Assembly (NCBI RefSeq): GCF_054482525.1
Contig: NZ_CM137006.1
DNA length: 64,000 nt
Reading direction: 5' to 3' (one strand)
Made by a program: the position numbers and the translations under genes. A model generated the notes under the pieces. The model was not told the origin of the DNA. It did no database searches and saw only the letters and a list, made by a program, of their open reading frames with translations. Of the stretch, positions 6,819 to 21,148 are shown piece after piece. Positions within the stretch are counted from its first letter, which is position 1; each line of letters starts with the position of its first letter.

Positions 6819-8087
6819 ATGATTATCAAACGCACTCCTCAAGCCGCGTCGCCTCTGGCTTCGTGGCTTTCTTATCTGGAAAACCTGCACAGTAAAACTA
6901 TCGATCTCGGCCTTGAGCGCGTGAGCCAGGTCGCGGCGCGTCTTGGCATTCTGAAACCAGCGCCATTTGTGTTTACCGTTGCGGGTACGAATGGCAAAGG
7001 CACCACCTGCCGTACGCTGGAGTCGATTCTGATGGCGGCAGGGTACAAAGTGGGCGTCTACAGTTCGCCGCATCTGGTGCGTTATACCGAGCGCGTACGT
7101 GTGCAGGGCCAGGAATTGCCGGAATCGGCCCACACCGCCTCTTTTGCGGAGATTGAATCGGCACGCGGTGATATTTCCCTGACCTATTTCGAGTACGGTA
7201 CGCTGTCGGCGTTGTGGCTGTTCAAACAGGCACAACTTGACGTGGTGATTCTGGAAGTAGGGCTGGGCGGTCGTCTGGACGCAACCAATATTGTCGATGC
7301 CGATGTTGCGGTAGTAACCAGCATTGCGCTGGATCATACCGACTGGCTGGGGCCAGATCGCGAAAGCATTGGTCGCGAGAAAGCAGGCATCTTCCGCAGC
7401 GAAAAACCGGCAATTGTTGGTGAGCCGGAAATGCCTTCTACCATTGCTGATGTGGCGCAGGAAAAAAGTGCACTGTTACAACGTCGGGGCGTTGAGTGGA
7501 ACTATTCCGTCACCGATCATGACTGGGCGTTTAGCGATGCTCACGGCACGCTGGAAAATCTGCCGTTGCCGCTTGTCCCGCAACCGAATGCCGCAACGGC
7601 GCTGGCGGCACTGCGTGCCAGCGGGCTGGAGGTCAGTGAAAATGCCATTCGCGACGGGATTGCCAGCGCAATTTTGCCGGGACGTTTCCAGATTGTGAGC
7701 GAGTCACCACGCGTTATTTTTGATGTCGCGCATAATCCACATGCGGCGGAATATCTCACCGGGCGTATGAAAGCGCTACCGAAAAACGGGCGCGTACTGG
7801 CGGTTATCGGTATGCTACATGATAAAGATATTGCCGGAACTCTGGCCTGGTTGAAAAGCGTGGTTGATGACTGGTATTGTGCGCCACTGGAAGGGCCGCG
7901 CGGTGCCACGGCAGAACAACTGCTTGAGCATTTGGGTAACGGCAAATCATTTGATAGCGTGGCGCAGGCATGGGATGCCGCAATGGCGGACGCTAAAGCG
8001 GAAGATACCGTGCTGGTGTGTGGTTCGTTCCACACGGTCGCACATGTCATGGAAGTGATTGACGCGAGGAGAAGCGGTGGCAAGTAA
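6819..8087 (+). CDS. folC: Bifunctional folylpolyglutamate synthase / dihydrofolate synthase
   Basis: 422 aa; P-loop GTNGKGTT; recognised FolC sequence. Confidence 0.95.
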   Translation: MIIKRTPQAASPLASWLSYLENLHSKTIDLGLERVSQVAARLGILKPAPFVFTVAGTNGKGTTCRTLESILMAAGYKVGVYSSPHLVRYTERVRVQGQELPESAHTASFAEIESARGDISLTYFEYGTLSALWLFKQAQLDVVILEVGLGGRLDATNIVDADVAVVTSIALDHTDWLGPDRESIGREKAGIFRSEKPAIVGEPEMPSTIADVAQEKSALLQRRGVEWNYSVTDHDWAFSDAHGTLENLPLPLVPQPNAATALAALRASGLEVSENAIRDGIASAILPGRFQIVSESPRVIFDVAHNPHAAEYLTGRMKALPKNGRVLAVIGMLHDKDIAGTLAWLKSVVDDWYCAPLEGPRGATAEQLLEHLGNGKSFDSVAQAWDAAMADAKAEDTVLVCGSFHTVAHVMEVIDARRSGGK

Positions 8088-8727
8088 GTTTCAGAATCGG
8101 TTAGTGGGCACGATCGTGCTGGTGGCGCTGGGGGTGATTGTACTTCCAGGGCTGCTGGACGGGCAGAAAAAACATTATCAGGATGAGTTCGCGGCTATCC
8201 CGCTGGTGCCGAAAGCTGGCGATCGCGATGAGCCTGATATGATGCCAGCCGCCACCCAGGCGTTGCCGACGCAGCCGCCGGAAGGCGCAGCGGAAGAGGT
8301 GCGGGCAGGTGATGCCGCAGCACCGTCGCTCGATCCGGCCACTATTGCAGCCAATAACACCGAGTTTGAACCGGAACCTGCACCGGTCGCCCCACCGAAG
8401 CCGAAACCGGTGGAGTCGCCTAAACCGAAGGTTGAAGCACCACCTGCGCCGAAGCCGGTCGTGGAAGAAAAAGCAGCGCCAACGGGTAAAGCCTATGTTG
8501 TACAACTGGGCGCACTGAAAAATGCCGATAAAGTGAATGAGATTGTCGGTAAGCTGCGCGGTGCCGGTTATCGGGTTTATACGTCGCCATCCACGCCAGT
8601 GCAGGGCAAAATTACCCGTATTCTGGTTGGGCCAGATGCCTCGAAAGATAAGCTGAAAGGTTCGCTGGGTGAGTTGAAGCAACTTTCTGGCTTAAGTGGC
8701 GTGGTAATGGGCTATACGCCGAATTAA
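8077..8727 (+). CDS. dedD: Cell division protein DedD (SPOR domain)
   Basis: GTG at 8077 preceded by GGAG at 8067-8070 gives (M)ASKFQNRLVG...; N-terminal TM segment, Pro/Lys/Ala-rich linker, C-terminal SPOR-like domain; overlaps folC 3' end by 11 nt; track ORF starts at upstream TTG 8059. Confidence 0.85.
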   Translation: MASKFQNRLVGTIVLVALGVIVLPGLLDGQKKHYQDEFAAIPLVPKAGDRDEPDMMPAATQALPTQPPEGAAEEVRAGDAAAPSLDPATIAANNTEFEPEPAPVAPPKPKPVESPKPKVEAPPAPKPVVEEKAAPTGKAYVVQLGALKNADKVNEIVGKLRGAGYRVYTSPSTPVQGKITRILVGPDASKDKLKGSLGELKQLSGLSGVVMGYTPN

Positions 8728-8736
8728 TACGGTCTT

Positions 8737-8847
8737 GCCTGATGCGACGCTGGCGCGTCTTATCAGGCCTGCGCAGGGGTAGAGCCGTAGGTCGGATAAG
8801 GCGTTTACGCCGCATCCGACACGCATTGTCCGATGCCGCAAAGGCAT
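8737..8847. repeat. REP / BIME cluster (two full REP palindromes plus a partial third) between dedD and cvpA
   Basis: GCCTGATGCGACGCTGGCGCGTCTTATCAGGC (8737-8768) and GTAGGTCGGATAAGGCGTTTACGCCGCATCCGACACGC (8787-8824) match canonical E. coli REP sequences in opposite orientation. Confidence 0.8.
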
Positions 8848-8985
8848 AAAAAGTCGATGGCGTTGAATATTTTTTCAGCGCCATTTTTATTGATGCGCGG
8901 GAAGGAAATCCCTACGCAAACGTTTTCTTTTTCTGTTAGAATGCGCCCCGAACAGGATGACAGGGCGTAAAATCGTGGGACACAT

Positions 8986-9474
8986 ATGGTCTGGATTGAT
9001 TACGCCATAATCGCGGTGATTGCTTTTTCCTCTCTGGTTAGCCTGATCCGCGGCTTTGTTCGTGAAGCGTTATCGCTGGTGACATGGGGTTGTGCTTTCT
9101 TTGTTGCCAGTCATTACTACACTTACCTGTCAGTCTGGTTTACGGGCTTTGAAGACGAACTGGTTCGAAATGGGATTGCCATCGCGGTACTGTTTATCGC
9201 TACCCTGATCGTTGGTGCTATCGTGAACTTCGTGATAGGCCAGTTGGTGGAGAAAACGGGGTTGTCAGGCACCGATCGGGTGCTGGGCGTCTGTTTCGGT
9301 GCGTTGCGCGGTGTGTTGATTGTTGCCGCCATTCTCTTCTTTCTCGACTCCTTTACCGGGGTGTCGAAAAGCGAAGACTGGAGCAAATCACAGCTGATCC
9401 CGCAGTTCAGTTTTATCATCAGATGGTTTTTTGATTATCTGCAAAGCTCGTCAAGTTTCTTGCCCAGAGCGTAA
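8986..9474 (+). CDS. cvpA: Colicin V production membrane protein CvpA
   Basis: 162 aa multi-TM ORF immediately upstream of purF (cvpA-purF-ubiX arrangement). Confidence 0.9.
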   Translation: MVWIDYAIIAVIAFSSLVSLIRGFVREALSLVTWGCAFFVASHYYTYLSVWFTGFEDELVRNGIAIAVLFIATLIVGAIVNFVIGQLVEKTGLSGTDRVLGVCFGALRGVLIVAAILFFLDSFTGVSKSEDWSKSQLIPQFSFIIRWFFDYLQSSSSFLPRA

Positions 9475-9510
9475 GTGCTCTGAGATGTGGCTTAACGAGG
9501 AAAAAGACGT

Positions 9511-11028
9511 ATGTGCGGTATTGTCGGTATCGCCGGTGTTATGCCGGTTAACCAGTCGATTTATGATGCCTTAACGGTGCTTCAGCATCGCGGTCAGGAT
9601 GCCGCCGGCATCATCACCATAGATGCCAATAACTGCTTCCGTTTGCGTAAAGCGAACGGGCTGGTGAGCGATGTATTTGAAGCTCGCCATATGCAGCGTT
9701 TGCAGGGCAATATGGGCATTGGTCATGTGCGTTACCCTACGGCTGGCAGCTCCAGCGCCTCTGAAGCGCAGCCGTTTTACGTTAACTCTCCGTATGGCAT
9801 TACGCTTGCCCACAACGGCAATCTGACCAACGCGCATGAGTTACGTAAAAAACTGTTTGAAGAAAAACGCCGCCACATCAACACCACTTCCGACTCGGAA
9901 ATTCTGCTTAATATCTTCGCCAGCGAGTTGGACAACTTCCGCCACTACCCGCTGGAAGCCGACAATATTTTCGCTGCCATTGCTGCCACAAACCGCTTAA
10001 TCCGCGGCGCGTATGCCTGCGTGGCGATGATTATCGGCCATGGTATGGTTGCTTTCCGCGATCCAAACGGGATTCGTCCGCTGGTACTGGGAAAACGTGA
10101 TATTGACGAGAACCGTACAGAATATATGGTCGCTTCCGAAAGCGTAGCGCTCGATACGCTGGGCTTTGATTTCCTGCGTGACGTCGCGCCGGGCGAAGCG
10201 ATTTACATCACTGAAGAAGGGCAGTTGTTTACCCGTCAATGTGCTGACAATCCGGTCAGCAATCCGTGCCTGTTTGAGTATGTATACTTTGCTCGCCCGG
10301 ACTCGTTCATCGACAAAATTTCCGTTTACAGCGCGCGTGTGAATATGGGTACGAAACTGGGCGAGAAAATTGCCCGCGAATGGGAAGATCTGGATATCGA
10401 CGTGGTGATCCCGATCCCGGAAACCTCGTGTGATATCGCGCTGGAAATTGCTCGTATTCTGGGCAAGCCGTACCGCCAGGGCTTCGTTAAAAACCGCTAT
10501 GTTGGCCGCACCTTTATCATGCCGGGCCAGCAGCTGCGTCGTAAGTCCGTGCGCCGTAAACTGAACGCCAACCGCGCCGAGTTCCGCGATAAAAACGTCC
10601 TGCTGGTCGACGACTCCATCGTCCGTGGCACCACTTCTGAGCAGATTATCGAGATGGCACGCGAAGCCGGAGCGAAGAAAGTGTATCTCGCTTCTGCGGC
10701 ACCGGAAATTCGCTTCCCGAACGTTTATGGTATTGATATGCCGAGCGCCACGGAACTGATCGCTCACGGTCGCGAAGTAGATGAAATTCGCCAGATCATC
10801 GGTGCTGACGGGTTGATTTTCCAGGATCTGAACGATCTGATCGAAGCCGTTCGCGCTGAAAACCCGGATATTCAGCAGTTTGAGTGTTCGGTGTTCAACG
10901 GCGTTTACGTCACCAAAGATGTTGATCAGGGCTACCTCGATTTCCTCGATACTTTACGTAATGACGACGCCAAAGCAGTGCAACGTCAGAACGAAGTGGA
11001 AAATCTCGAAATGCATAACGAAGGATGA
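9511..11028 (+). CDS. purF: Amidophosphoribosyltransferase (glutamine-PRPP amidotransferase)
   Basis: 505 aa; N-terminal MCGIVGI (Ntn Cys after Met); PRPP-binding motif [13 protein letters not shown]. Confidence 0.97.
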
Positions 11029-11038
11029 TGCCTTCGCT

Positions 11039-11061
11039 CAGGGTGCCGGTCTGGCACCCTG
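11039..11061 (+). other. GC-rich hairpin between purF and ubiX (no U-tract)
   Basis: CAGGGTGCC-GGTCT-GGCACCCTG, 9-bp stem, 11 nt after the purF stop. Confidence 0.5.
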
Positions 11062-11122
11062 ACTTGCAACTCCCGCCGAAATCCTGCAAAGTCTGCCTGC
11101 AAGTCTGACAGGGCAACTATTT

Positions 11123-11692
11123 ATGAAACGACTCATTGTAGGCATCAGCGGTGCCAGCGGCGCGATTTATGGCGTGCGCTTATTACAGGTTCTGCGCGAT
11201 GTCGCAGATGTTGAAACGCATCTGGTGATGAGCCAGGCCGCGCGCCAGACCTTATCCCTCGAAACGGATTTTTCCCTGCGCGAAGTGCAGGCATTAGCCG
11301 ATGTGACGCACGATGCGCGCGATATTGCTGCCAGCATTTCTTCCGGTTCTTTCCAGACACTGGGGATGGTGATTTTACCCTGTTCAATCAAAACCCTGTC
11401 CGGCATTGTCCATAGCTATACTGATGGCTTACTGACCCGTGCGGCAGATGTTGTGCTGAAAGAGCGTCGCCCGCTGGTGCTCTGCGTGCGTGAAACACCA
11501 TTGCACTTAGGCCATCTGCGTTTAATGACCCAGGCGGCAGAAATCGGTGCGGTGATTATGCCTCCCGTTCCGGCGTTTTATCATCGCCCGCAATCCCTTG
11601 ATGATGTGATAAATCAGACGGTTAACCGTGTACTCGATCAATTCACCATAACGCTTCCTGAAGATCTCTTTGCCCGCTGGCAGGGCGCATAA
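11123..11692 (+). CDS. ubiX: Flavin prenyltransferase UbiX
   Basis: 189 aa; MKRLIVGISGASGAIYG flavoprotein fold motif; downstream of purF. Confidence 0.95.
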   Translation: MKRLIVGISGASGAIYGVRLLQVLRDVADVETHLVMSQAARQTLSLETDFSLREVQALADVTHDARDIAASISSGSFQTLGMVILPCSIKTLSGIVHSYTDGLLTRAADVVLKERRPLVLCVRETPLHLGHLRLMTQAAEIGAVIMPPVPAFYHRPQSLDDVINQTVNRVLDQFTITLPEDLFARWQGA

Positions 11693-11700
11693 CCTCATTG

Positions 11701-11724
11701 TTGCCCTGTTTCAGGGCAATTTTG
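11701..11724 (+). terminator. Intrinsic terminator downstream of ubiX
   Basis: TTGCCCTG-TTTC-AGGGCAA hairpin followed by TTTTGC, 9 nt after the ubiX stop. Confidence 0.55.
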
Positions 11725-11872
11725 CAACCGCGATCAAATCCTCGACATTTTGTTCCTTTCGATGAATCGAAACGCTGCGATTCAACCGCCATACCTGCTA
11801 TCTTCAACTTTAGGACAATAATGCAACGTCTTATTAACATATTTAACGTTGAATGTTACTGTTGTCGTAAAG

Positions 11873-11890
11873 ATGGCATAAGACCTGCAT
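11873..11890 (+). promoter_or_regulatory. Candidate sigma54 (-24/-12) promoter of argT
   Basis: TGGCAT-N5-CTGCAT with GG at 11875-11876 and GC at 11887-11888 (correct 11-nt register), about 70 nt upstream of the argT ATG; argT is known to be under Ntr control. Confidence 0.55.
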
Positions 11891-11957
11891 GAAAGAGCCT
11901 GCAAACACACAACACAATACACAACATAAAAAAGCCATTTTCACTTGAGGGTTATGT

Positions 11958-12740
11958 ATGAAGAAGTCGATTCTCGCTCTGTCTTTGTTAGTCGGTCTCT
12001 CTGCAGCGGCTTCCAGCTATGCGGCGCTACCGGAGACGGTACGTATCGGAACCGATACCACCTATGCGCCGTTCTCATCGAAAGATGCCAAAGGTGACTT
12101 TGTTGGCTTTGATATCGATCTCGGTAACGAGATGTGCAAACGGATGCAGGTGAAATGTACCTGGGTTGCCAGTGACTTTGACGCGCTGATCCCCTCACTG
12201 AAAGCGAAAAAAATCGACGCCATTATTTCGTCGCTCTCCATTACCGATAAACGTCAGCAGGAGATTGCTTTCTCCGACAAGTTGTACGCCGCAGATTCTC
12301 GTTTGATTGCCGCCAAAGGTTCGCCGATTCAGCCAACGCTGGATTCACTGAAAGGTAAACATGTGGGTGTGCTGCAGGGATCAACCCAGGAAGCTTACGC
12401 TAACGAGACCTGGCGTAGCAAAGGCGTGGATGTGGTGGCCTATGCCAACCAGGATTTGGTCTATTCCGATCTGGCTGCAGGACGTCTGGATGCTGCGTTA
12501 CAAGATGAAGTTGCTGCCAGCGAAGGATTCCTCAAGCAACCTGCTGGTAAAGATTTCGCCTTTGCTGGCTCATCAGTGAAAGACAAAAAATACTTCGGTG
12601 ACGGCACCGGTGTAGGGCTACGTAAAGATGATGCGGAACTGACGGCTGCCTTCAATAAGGCGCTTGGCGAGCTGCGTCAGGACGGCACCTACGACAAGAT
12701 GGCGAAAAAGTATTTTGACTTTAATGTCTACGGTGACTGA
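11958..12740 (+). CDS. argT: Lysine/arginine/ornithine-binding periplasmic protein
   Basis: 260 aa with signal peptide ([22 protein letters not shown]); paralogue of the downstream hisJ. Confidence 0.95.
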
Positions 12741-12799
12741 TACGTCGCAGGGAAGCTGTACCTGATGGAATGATCATCATGGTGCACGCCAGGTTTGTT

Positions 12800-12816
12800 G
12801 CACTATCGTGGTGCAT
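12800..12816 (+). promoter_or_regulatory. Candidate NtrC-binding site upstream of hisJ
   Basis: TGCACT-ATCGT-GGTGCA matches the NtrC consensus TGCACC-N5-GGTGCA at 11 of 12 positions; a TGGCAC -24-like element lies about 100 bp downstream (12898-12903) but its -12 region reads GT rather than GC. Confidence 0.45.
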
Positions 12817-12960
12817 TGAAATGCATACTTAAGCATTTTTAATGAAAAATAATACGTCTAACGGGGCGGGATATTTTGCCTTGATGGTCAATTTTATGGC
12901 ACGATAAGTGTAACAAACCTGTAAATATTCCCTATAAAAAGACTGTCAGTTGAGGACATT

Positions 12961-13743
12961 ATGAAAAAACTGGTGCTATCGCTCTCTCTGGTTCTGGCCT
13001 TCTCCAGCGCAACTGCGGCGTTTGCTGCGATTCCGCAAAACATCCGCATCGGTACCGATCCGACCTATGCGCCATTTGAATCAAAAAATTCACAAGGTGA
13101 ACTGGTTGGCTTCGATATCGATCTGGCAAAGGAGTTGTGCAAACGCATCAATACGCAATGTACGTTTGTCGAAAACCCACTGGATGCGTTAATCCCGTCC
13201 TTAAAAGCGAAGAAGATTGACGCCATCATGTCATCGCTTTCCATTACGGAAAAACGTCAGCAAGAAATAGCCTTCACCGACAAACTGTACGCTGCCGATT
13301 CTCGTCTGGTGGTGGCGAAAAATTCCGACATTCAGCCGACAGTCGAGTCGCTGAAAGGCAAGCGGGTAGGCGTATTGCAGGGCACCACCCAGGAGACGTT
13401 CGGTAATGAACACTGGGCACCAAAAGGCATTGAAATCGTCTCGTATCAGGGGCAGGACAACATTTATTCTGACCTGACTGCCGGACGTATTGATGCCGCG
13501 TTCCAGGATGAGGTCGCTGCCAGCGAAGGTTTCCTCAAGCAGCCAGTCGGTAAAGATTACAAATTCGGTGGCCCGTCTGTTAAAGATGAAAAACTGTTTG
13601 GCGTAGGGACCGGCATGGGCCTGCGTAAAGAAGATAACGAACTGCGCGAGGCACTGAACAAAGCCTTTGCCGAAATGCGCGCTGACGGTACTTACGAGAA
13701 ATTAGCGAAAAAGTACTTCGATTTTGATGTTTATGGTGGTTAA
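12961..13743 (+). CDS. hisJ: Histidine-binding periplasmic protein
   Basis: 260 aa with signal peptide; high similarity to argT; first gene of hisJQMP. Confidence 0.95.
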
Positions 13744-13832
13744 TCGCCATCGGTGAAAGAAAGCCCGCTCCCTTCGGGTAACCGGAGGGAGACAAGAGGC
13801 GGTAATTCACCACACACGACAGGACAGGCTGC

Positions 13833-14519
13833 ATGTTGTATGGGTTTTCAGGTGTTATTTTACAGGGTGCGCTCGTCACGCTGGAGCTGGCTATCAGCTC
13901 TGTAGTGCTCGCCGTAATCATCGGTTTAATTGGCGCTGGCGGTAAGCTCTCGCAAAATCGGCTTTCGGGCCTTATTTTCGAAGGCTACACCACGCTGATT
14001 CGTGGCGTGCCGGACTTGGTGTTGATGCTGCTGATTTTCTACGGTTTGCAGATTGCACTAAACACGGTGACGGAGGCGATGGGCGTCGGGCAGATTGATA
14101 TTGATCCGATGGTCGCAGGTATTATCACTCTCGGTTTTATCTACGGTGCTTACTTTACCGAAACGTTCCGTGGCGCGTTTATGGCTGTGCCGAAAGGACA
14201 TATAGAAGCGGCGACGGCGTTCGGTTTTACTCGTGGGCAAGTGTTTCGGCGGATCATGTTTCCGGCGATGATGCGTTACGCCCTGCCAGGCATTGGCAAC
14301 AACTGGCAGGTGATCCTTAAATCTACCGCACTGGTTTCGTTACTTGGCCTGGAAGATGTGGTCAAAGCCACGCAGCTGGCAGGCAAAAGTACCTGGGAAC
14401 CGTTCTATTTCGCCATCGTTTGTGGCGTGATTTACCTGGTTTTCACCACCGTTTCCAATGGTGTGCTGCTGTTCCTTGAGCGCCGCTACTCCGTGGGTGT
14501 GAAGAGGGCTGACCTGTGA
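13833..14519 (+). CDS. hisQ: Histidine ABC transporter permease HisQ
   Basis: 228 aa polytopic membrane ORF with ABC permease EAA-like loop. Confidence 0.95.
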   Translation: MLYGFSGVILQGALVTLELAISSVVLAVIIGLIGAGGKLSQNRLSGLIFEGYTTLIRGVPDLVLMLLIFYGLQIALNTVTEAMGVGQIDIDPMVAGIITLGFIYGAYFTETFRGAFMAVPKGHIEAATAFGFTRGQVFRRIMFPAMMRYALPGIGNNWQVILKSTALVSLLGLEDVVKATQLAGKSTWEPFYFAIVCGVIYLVFTTVSNGVLLFLERRYSVGVKRADL

Positions 14520-21114: not shown

Positions 21115-21148
21115 AAAAAGAGCCGCAATTGCGGCTCTTAACATTTTT
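21113..21148. terminator. Bidirectional intrinsic terminator between convergent yfcD and yfcC
   Basis: Perfect palindrome AGAGCCGC-AATT-GCGGCTCT flanked by A6 on the left and a T-rich tract on the right; canonical hairpin+U-run when read on the minus strand for yfcC. Confidence 0.7.

Follow-up and report, generated by a model that had tools for sequence, protein, structure and literature searches.

A conserved stem-loop without a U-tract at the purF-ubiX boundary of Escherichia coli and related Enterobacterales

Results

The purF-ubiX boundary contains a stable hairpin

We analyzed a stretch of 64,000 nucleotides (the window) from NCBI RefSeq assembly GCF_054482525.1, contig NZ_CM137006.1. 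The host is E. coli, and the sequence across the site is 100% identical to that of strain 1190 and 97.3% identical to that of K-12. The RefSeq annotation gives the order dedD, cvpA, purF, ubiX, argT, hisJ on the plus strand, and databases annotate cvpA-purF-ubiX as a single unit. The features of the boundary are as follows (window coordinates).

9511-11028, plus strand: purF coding sequence, amidophosphoribosyltransferase, stop codon TGA at 11026-11028 (open reading frame list; RefSeq annotation of strain 1190 and K-12)
11038-11062, plus strand: hairpin, with 5' arm TCAGGGTGCC at 11038-11047, loop GGTCT at 11048-11052 and 3' arm GGCACCCTGA at 11053-11062 (sequence, fold and conservation)
11039, plus strand: polymorphic position at the base of the stem, C or G (complete E. 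coli genomes)
11064-11092, plus strand: promoter-like block, with -35 TTGCAA at 11064-11069, a 17-bp spacer and -10 CAAAGT at 11087-11092 (conservation)
11074, plus strand: equivalent of a purF 3' end mapped by Term-seq, the RNA ending ...GGCACCCUGACUUGCAACUCCC (PMC7815308; mapped by identical sequence)
11093-11116, plus strand: second small predicted stem, CUGCCUG/CAGGGCA, over the likely ubiX Shine-Dalgarno sequence AGGG (11111-11113) (minimum free energy fold)
11123-11692, plus strand: ubiX coding sequence, flavin prenyltransferase, start codon ATG at 11123 (open reading frame list and RefSeq annotation)
11701-11723, plus strand: terminator-like hairpin after ubiX, TTGCCCTG/ttt/CAGGGCAA, then TTTT (read from sequence)

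Small open reading frames over the site (10880-11062, plus strand; 10910-11116, minus strand) were without support and were taken as spurious. Farther along, a sigma-54 promoter for argT (TGGCAT-N5-CTGCA) lies at 11874-11889.

Positions 11039-11061 read CAGGGTGCC GGTCT GGCACCCTG. An earlier note on this DNA, made from the sequence alone, had described a 9-bp GC-rich stem here, 11 nt after the purF stop and about 60 nt before ubiX, with no U-tract. We found the stem as described, and an additional T-A pair extends it to a perfect 10-bp stem (11038-11047 with 11053-11062) with a 5-nt loop. There are 10 nt between the purF stop and C11039, and 61 nt from G11061 to the ubiX ATG. Seven of the ten pairs are G-C, and both the stem and the loop are within the range of intrinsic terminators (a GC-rich stem of approximately 5-14 bp and a short loop). 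There is no T-run after the hairpin: the next 8 nt are CTTGCAAC, with 2 T in 8, so the U-tract of an intrinsic terminator is lacking. The hairpin after ubiX, in contrast, is followed by TTTT.

RNA folding, which the earlier note had named as a check, bore out the stem. The predicted free energy was -20.2 kcal/mol, compared to -9.1 ± 2.4 kcal/mol for dinucleotide shuffles (z = -4.6), and none of 200 shuffles was as good. In the fold, two weak outer pairs (G11036-C11067 and C11037-G11066) extend into the -35 hexamer of the promoter-like block.

The hairpin pattern is present once in the window when 3 mismatches are allowed (0.01 expected). More generally, a search for perfect hairpins with stems of 9 bp or more gave 16 nested hits, which represent 10 distinct sites in the window, compared to 1.6 hits in Markov shuffles. 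Perfect stems of this length in this E. coli genome are generally not accidents. The nine other sites are at window positions 21118, 22792, 22824, 25048, 27093, 30934, 33351, 49822 and 52455; the one at 21118 matches the yfcD terminator entry of the published Term-seq table discussed below.

One explanation is that the hairpin arose as a palindrome by chance, or by decay of a REP element, and has no function. There are REP-like elements nearby, between dedD and cvpA, as that explanation would have it. They are at window positions 8701-8824 and have sub-threshold Rfam naRNA4 matches on both strands. These were the only naRNA4 hits in an Rfam scan of 8000-14000, and nothing was detected at the purF hairpin even at E ≤ 10. 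This result, and the uniqueness of the pattern in the window, argue against a REP origin.

A simple terminator scan did not call the purF hairpin. The same scan missed obvious terminators in Pectobacterium and Pantoea, because extension of the stem by G-T or A-T pairs swallowed the T-run, or because the loop was longer than 8 nt. A replacement scan that allowed Watson-Crick pairs only recovered the terminators that had been missed.

The stem base is polymorphic within E. coli

Position 11039, at the base of the stem, is C in approximately 2035 complete E. coli genomes, including this strain, O157:H7 and ST131, and has the 10-bp stem in these. In approximately 3026 complete genomes, including K-12 and BL21, it is G. 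The G creates a G.G mismatch and leaves an 8-bp core, AGGGTGCC/GGCACCCT, with a predicted free energy of -16.4 kcal/mol (z = -3.3). G is probably the derived state, because E. albertii has C. The loop and the core stem were invariant in the divergent E. coli genomes sampled. In E. albertii, the loop is the same and the core has a single C-to-T change that retains a G-U pair. The differences within this sample of E. coli and E. albertii are located at the stem base, just 5' of the stem, and further 3' in the spacer.

A hairpin follows purF in most relatives

We retrieved 80 loci by searching for the PurF protein in one genome per species, a search that was blind to intergenic sequence; the set of named species used for comparison excludes Salmonella and Klebsiella. 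Among the 80 loci, ubiX was the next gene after purF only in the Enterobacterales, in three arrangements. In the first (Escherichia, Citrobacter, E. cloacae and Enterobacter BIGb0383), a short spacer of 89-97 nt contains a hairpin that starts 9-14 nt past the purF stop. The stem sequences are unrelated between genera, and there is no T-run except in Enterobacter BIGb0383 (5 T in the 8-nt tail). In the second (Brenneria, Pectobacterium, Yersinia and Pantoea), purF and ubiX are 114-268 nt apart, and 5-7 of the 8 nt past the hairpin are T, the form of a canonical terminator. In the third (Photorhabdus), the spacer is 45-46 nt and has neither a hairpin nor a promoter-like block. Budvicia, with a spacer of 140 nt, had no comparable perfect stem of at least 6 bp. 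Most of the relatives that do not have ubiX after purF also have a hairpin and T-run after purF.

We also scanned metagenomes with a pattern that was taken from the conserved block 3' of the hairpin and was built to exclude E. coli. The scan returned 41 stretches, of which 37 were purF-ubiX spacers with 29 unique sequences. A hairpin was present in all four of the short-spacer genomes retrieved with PurF (E. albertii, Citrobacter, E. cloacae and Enterobacter BIGb0383) and in all 29 metagenomic spacers. In these sequences, the hairpin begins within approximately 14 nt of the purF stop, has 11-15 pairs in the minimum free energy fold (8 to approximately 14 of them perfect Watson-Crick), and has a predicted free energy of -13.5 to -25 kcal/mol. 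There are 1-3 T in the 8 nt after the stem among the relatives, Enterobacter BIGb0383 excepted. In position, the E. coli hairpin together with the promoter-like block next to it (below) corresponds to the separate terminator and block of other Enterobacterales.

Pairing is maintained by compensatory changes

There were 14 distinct stem sequences among the spacers, and all 11 of the stem positions change on both sides. For example, GGTGAGG/CCTCACT in one sequence is AGCGAGG/CCTCGCT in another, and in one sequence (L104) there is a deletion in each arm and pairing is kept. In both the metagenomic spacers and those retrieved with PurF, the loops are free to vary and the stems remain paired. Alignment of whole spacers with MAFFT placed the E. 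coli and Enterobacter stems in different registers, and arm-only sequences were shifted. We therefore registered the 14 stems on their predicted loops, with constant anchor sequences added. With this registration, 94.8% of cells were paired, compared to 36-51% when partners were slid by 1-3 columns. Registration on the predicted loop inflates the paired percentage and makes the alignment lean to pairing; it does not inflate the variety of pair types at each position. None of 500 shuffles reached the observed covariation score.

The hairpin is a conserved structure and not a chance palindrome. Conservation of its position with covariation across genera, the invariance of core stem and loop in the sampled E. 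coli genomes, and the mapped 3' end associated with it (below) refute a chance origin, and they leave the idea of a functionless palindrome or decayed REP element scarcely conceivable.

Because the sequence of the dyad differs between genera and its pairing is kept, the conserved property is one of nucleic-acid structure and not of a protein operator. This bears on another explanation, in which the dyad acts at the level of DNA, either as an operator for a regulator of ubiX or as part of a sigma-54 promoter. The dyad does overlap the -35 region of the putative ubiX promoter, and TGGCAC (11052-11057) followed by TTGCA (11064-11068) resembles the -24 and -12 elements of sigma-54 promoters. However, an operator would be expected to keep its sequence, the opposite of what we found. 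The GG (11053-54) and GC (11066-67) of the sigma-54-like elements are 11 nt apart, whereas the canonical spacing, which is also that of the argT promoter, is 10, and TGGCAC is missing in Enterobacter- and Citrobacter-type sequences. In addition, genomic SELEX with RpoN gave peaks at the argT/ubiX and cvpA/dedD spacers and none at purF/ubiX (PMC8743547). The spacing, the lack of conservation of the motif and the SELEX result largely refute the sigma-54 reading, and an action of the dyad as DNA is very improbable overall. We regard both chance and the DNA-level readings as effectively excluded.

A conserved promoter-like block abuts the hairpin

The pattern TTGNNN-N17-CA[AC]AGT was found in 10 of the 15 purF-ubiX spacers that were retrieved by PurF alone. 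By our own arithmetic, the chance expectation is approximately 1.5e-3 per spacer. The block is present in Brenneria, Pectobacterium, Yersinia and Budvicia, whose flanks are unalignable. Across spacers, the block lies 28 to 67 nt from the ubiX ATG. Its conservation in the metagenomic loci is circular, because those loci were fished with the block itself. The spacing is within that of sigma-70 promoters (17 ± 1 bp), the A at position 2 and T at position 6 of the -10 hexamer are present, and the hexamers are weak, with 4 of 6 and 3 of 6 matches. A simple promoter scan does not call TTGCAA-N17-CAAAGT. We read the block as a promoter because the spacing of the hexamers is fixed while the distance to the start codon varies, and we infer from this pattern that it is a weak sigma-70 promoter belonging to ubiX. 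The predicted start site would be near 11099-11101. The earlier note missed this block; if it is a promoter, then it is the block, rather than the hairpin alone, that would give ubiX independent expression.

The 3' arm of the hairpin overlaps or abuts the -35 hexamer in all of the short-spacer sequences except those of the Enterobacter BIGb0383 type, in which it ends 5 nt upstream. The Enterobacter-type 3' arm, GCCCTCACTTGC, ends within TTGCAA. A gap of 19-73 nt separates the terminator from the block in Brenneria, Pectobacterium and Yersinia.

The second small stem (11093-11116) would cover the likely ubiX Shine-Dalgarno sequence. The predicted ubiX start site would remove its 5' arm, and we speculate from the fold that this stem may form fully only in read-through RNA. 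Its GCCC...GGGC arms are invariant across genera, so that covariation is silent on this stem.

Several other features of the spacer were noted. Two repeats are present in E. coli, one direct (CCTGCAAAGTCTG / CCTGCAAGTCTG, 11083-11107) and one inverted, of 8 nt (GACTTGCA, 11061-68, and TGCAAGTC, 11098-11105); both are missing from Enterobacter-type spacers. A sigma-E-like reading of GCAACTC...TCTGC was rejected; by our count its spacer is approximately 19 nt, which is too long. In E. coli strain B27 (locus L002; NZ_AP027424, 2829-3232), ubiX is not annotated, the purF-argT gap is 402 nt versus 929, and there are many indels 3' of the promoter-like block, due to either a real loss of ubiX or an assembly problem.

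A published RNA 3' end maps just past the stem

The Term-seq analysis of MG1655 by Adams et al. (2021) lists a 'primary' purF 3' end at 2428685(-), in two entries with scores of 26321 and 27505, in a table that spans three growth conditions (PMC7815308, Supplementary file 1). The MG1655 purF RNA that ends there reads ...GGCACCCTGACTTGCAACTCCC, and the equivalent position in the window is 11074. This position is 12 nt past the 10-bp stem, 14 nt past the 8-bp core of K-12, and 7 nt past the weak outer G-C pairs. No bicyclomycin-sensitive (Rho-dependent) region is listed at MG1655 2428200-2428799 (PMC7815308, Supplementary file 2). The supplements of Romero 2014, SMRT-Cappable-seq and TERMITe contain no entry for purF or ubiX.

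The earlier note had suggested that the hairpin may uncouple ubiX from purF, as a partial terminator or as a stability element, and that a lack of 3' ends at this position would speak against such a role. The published end, the compensatory changes across genera, and the terminators at the equivalent site in other species all support the suggestion. So does the PurR-1 iModulon, which comprises purine-pathway genes 'plus add, ydhC, and cvpA' and does not name ubiX (PMC6892915). Membership in PurR-1 thus points indirectly to a ubiX level that does not follow purF. The PurR regulon paper reports no expression data specific to ubiX. The sigma-70/sigma-S ratios of cvpA, purF and ubiX were similar in run-off arrays in vitro (PMC3141248), a weak piece of evidence that fits read-through when no cellular factors are present.

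The 3' end could be a site of transcript release, with the hairpin acting as a leaky, non-canonical intrinsic terminator that frees part of the cvpA-purF transcripts independently of Rho. The hairpin has the size, energy and place directly after the coding sequence of a canonical intrinsic terminator, and it is at the same position as the hairpin and T-run terminators of Brenneria, Pectobacterium, Yersinia, Pantoea and Enterobacter BIGb0383. The end is 7 nt beyond the outermost predicted pair (C11067), and no Rho-dependent region is reported nearby. However, a U-rich tract of 7-8 nt is one of the two essential modules for intrinsic termination (PMC6061677), and the tail here (CUUGCAACUCCC in E. 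coli; AACUCCCC in the Enterobacter type) has 1-3 T per 8 nt, and 2 T in this strain compared to 5-7 in Brenneria, Pectobacterium, Yersinia and Pantoea. In addition, the end is 12-14 nt from the solid stem and not 7-9 nt. We consider release at a leaky terminator the main alternative to the account preferred below, possible though rather unlikely.

Alternatively, the end could mark a hairpin-stabilized pause of the his-leader type, in which the 3' end is 11-12 nt past the stem. RNA polymerase would be parked on the spacer of the ubiX promoter, and transcription of purF would gate or interfere with ubiX. The position of the mapped end 12 nt past the 10-bp stem, the C at -1 and G at +1, and the overlap or abutment of the 3' arm and the -35 in every short-spacer sequence except the Enterobacter BIGb0383 type are consistent with this idea. 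A consensus pause has G, G at -10 and -11, whereas these positions are T, T here. Furthermore, Term-seq of total RNA reports mostly stable released ends and not nascent RNA, and the overlap is explicable by compaction of the spacer alone. A pause of this type is therefore an improbable source of the mapped end.

Other ends in the same table were noted at this locus. A very strong 3' end classed as 'orphan' is listed at MG1655 2427825(-), which is window position 11934, and its score exceeds that of the purF end more than 20-fold (PMC7815308). It implies an abundant, CA-rich leader RNA of approximately 45 nt whose 3' end is 24 nt upstream of the argT ATG. In K-12, the ends internal to purF (2429969/70) and the primary end all fall where an AACTCC(C) sequence ends (window 9783-9789 and 11068-11074). 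The internal site of this strain has AACTCTC instead.

Discussion

To our knowledge, the hairpin between purF and ubiX has not been studied individually so far, and the 3' end equivalent to 11074 is already in a published table. We think it probable, with some reserve, that the U-less stem-loop fixes the 3' end of the cvpA-purF mRNA and protects it against exonucleases, perhaps with some pausing or weak termination, and that ubiX is fed both by read-through and by a weak promoter of its own. Established are the stem-loop itself, its conservation with covariation, the 3' end in the published table and the conserved block after the stem, and the proposal builds on these. Transcripts from the PurR-controlled cvpA-purF promoter would pass the purF stop, and those that continue would be cut or terminated further 3' and then trimmed in the 3'-to-5' direction, probably by PNPase or RNase II. 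The GC-rich stem would halt trimming and leave a stable RNA that ends approximately 12 nt past the stem, at a run of CCC; we infer that trimming by exonucleases is the origin of the mapped end. RNase II stalls at C clusters, and the C-run may help to set the point at which trimming stops. The stem may also slow RNA polymerase or cause weak termination. The adjoining block, which overlaps the base of the stem, would supply low transcription of ubiX outside purine control, and the hairpin and block together would form a compact junction between the end of one message and the promoter of the next.

Several points weigh against the protective account. No Rho region is reported nearby, the block is weak, the genes are annotated as a single unit, and the run-off ratios are similar. 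The distance of 12-14 nt from the perfect stem to the 3' end is also further than 'immediately downstream'.

The site resembles a class of elements described by Dar and Sorek (2018), in which the precise 3' ends of E. coli mRNAs at steady state are marked and protected by stable stem-loops that have no U-rich tail (PMC6061677). In that class, read-through RNA downstream accumulates in pnp and rnb mutants, and a mild bias of C over G follows the stem (PMC6061677). The purF site has a stable GC-rich stem-loop, a U-less tail, a precise end downstream, and a mild C-over-G bias (GC skew of -0.19 at 11060-11119); it is by way of the published end that it has the property that defines the class. Unlike the members of the class, which was defined on Rho-dependent transcripts, it has no reported bicyclomycin-sensitive region, and the downstream gene is annotated as co-transcribed.

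Other comparisons are also partial. Stem-loops and REP elements between cistrons lengthen the half-life of the upstream cistron, as in the malE-malF paradigm. Like the malE-malF element, the purF stem-loop is between genes of one annotated operon, and the upstream product is presumably needed in a much larger amount. Unlike that REP element, it is single-copy in the window and has no naRNA4 or REP match, and ubiX appears to have its own promoter. The order of a 3'-end hairpin followed by -35 and -10 hexamers is that of terminator-promoter junctions in gene clusters, and the two modules are separate in Brenneria, Pectobacterium and Yersinia. In Escherichia, Citrobacter and the E. cloacae type, but not in Enterobacter BIGb0383, the modules are fused and the T-run is missing. 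The simplest history that fits the spacers is that the junction descended from a terminator and a promoter by compaction, and that the T-run was lost where the -35 now sits.

The fusion of stem and promoter might itself be functional, as a two-level switch that would hold UbiX constant while purF follows the supply of purines. A pause approximately 12 nt past the stem would place polymerase on the spacer of the ubiX promoter, because the 3' arm and the -35 share DNA. High transcription of purF would then occlude initiation at ubiX, or hand over to it. The ubiX ribosome-binding site would stay paired (11093-11116) in read-through RNA and would be free in RNA from the promoter. We give such a switch little chance of being correct.

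The hairpin is an element of a known kind, a U-less 3' stem-loop at a gene boundary, and as such would not surprise specialists. Our preferred account, protection of the cvpA-purF 3' end next to a weak ubiX promoter, suggests that a cvpA-purF message with a defined 3' end, plus a partly independent ubiX, describes these genes better than a single unit does. The series of Enterobacterales spacers provides a clean example of a prediction of Dar and Sorek: a terminator has apparently lost its T-run and persists as a U-less stem-loop, the T-run apparently having been displaced by the -35 of a promoter as the spacer shrank from approximately 220-270 nt to approximately 90-100 nt. If the junction works in this way, it would allow a large, purine-regulated amount of PurF and a small, steady amount of UbiX, an enzyme of the ubiquinone pathway, to be made from adjacent genes.
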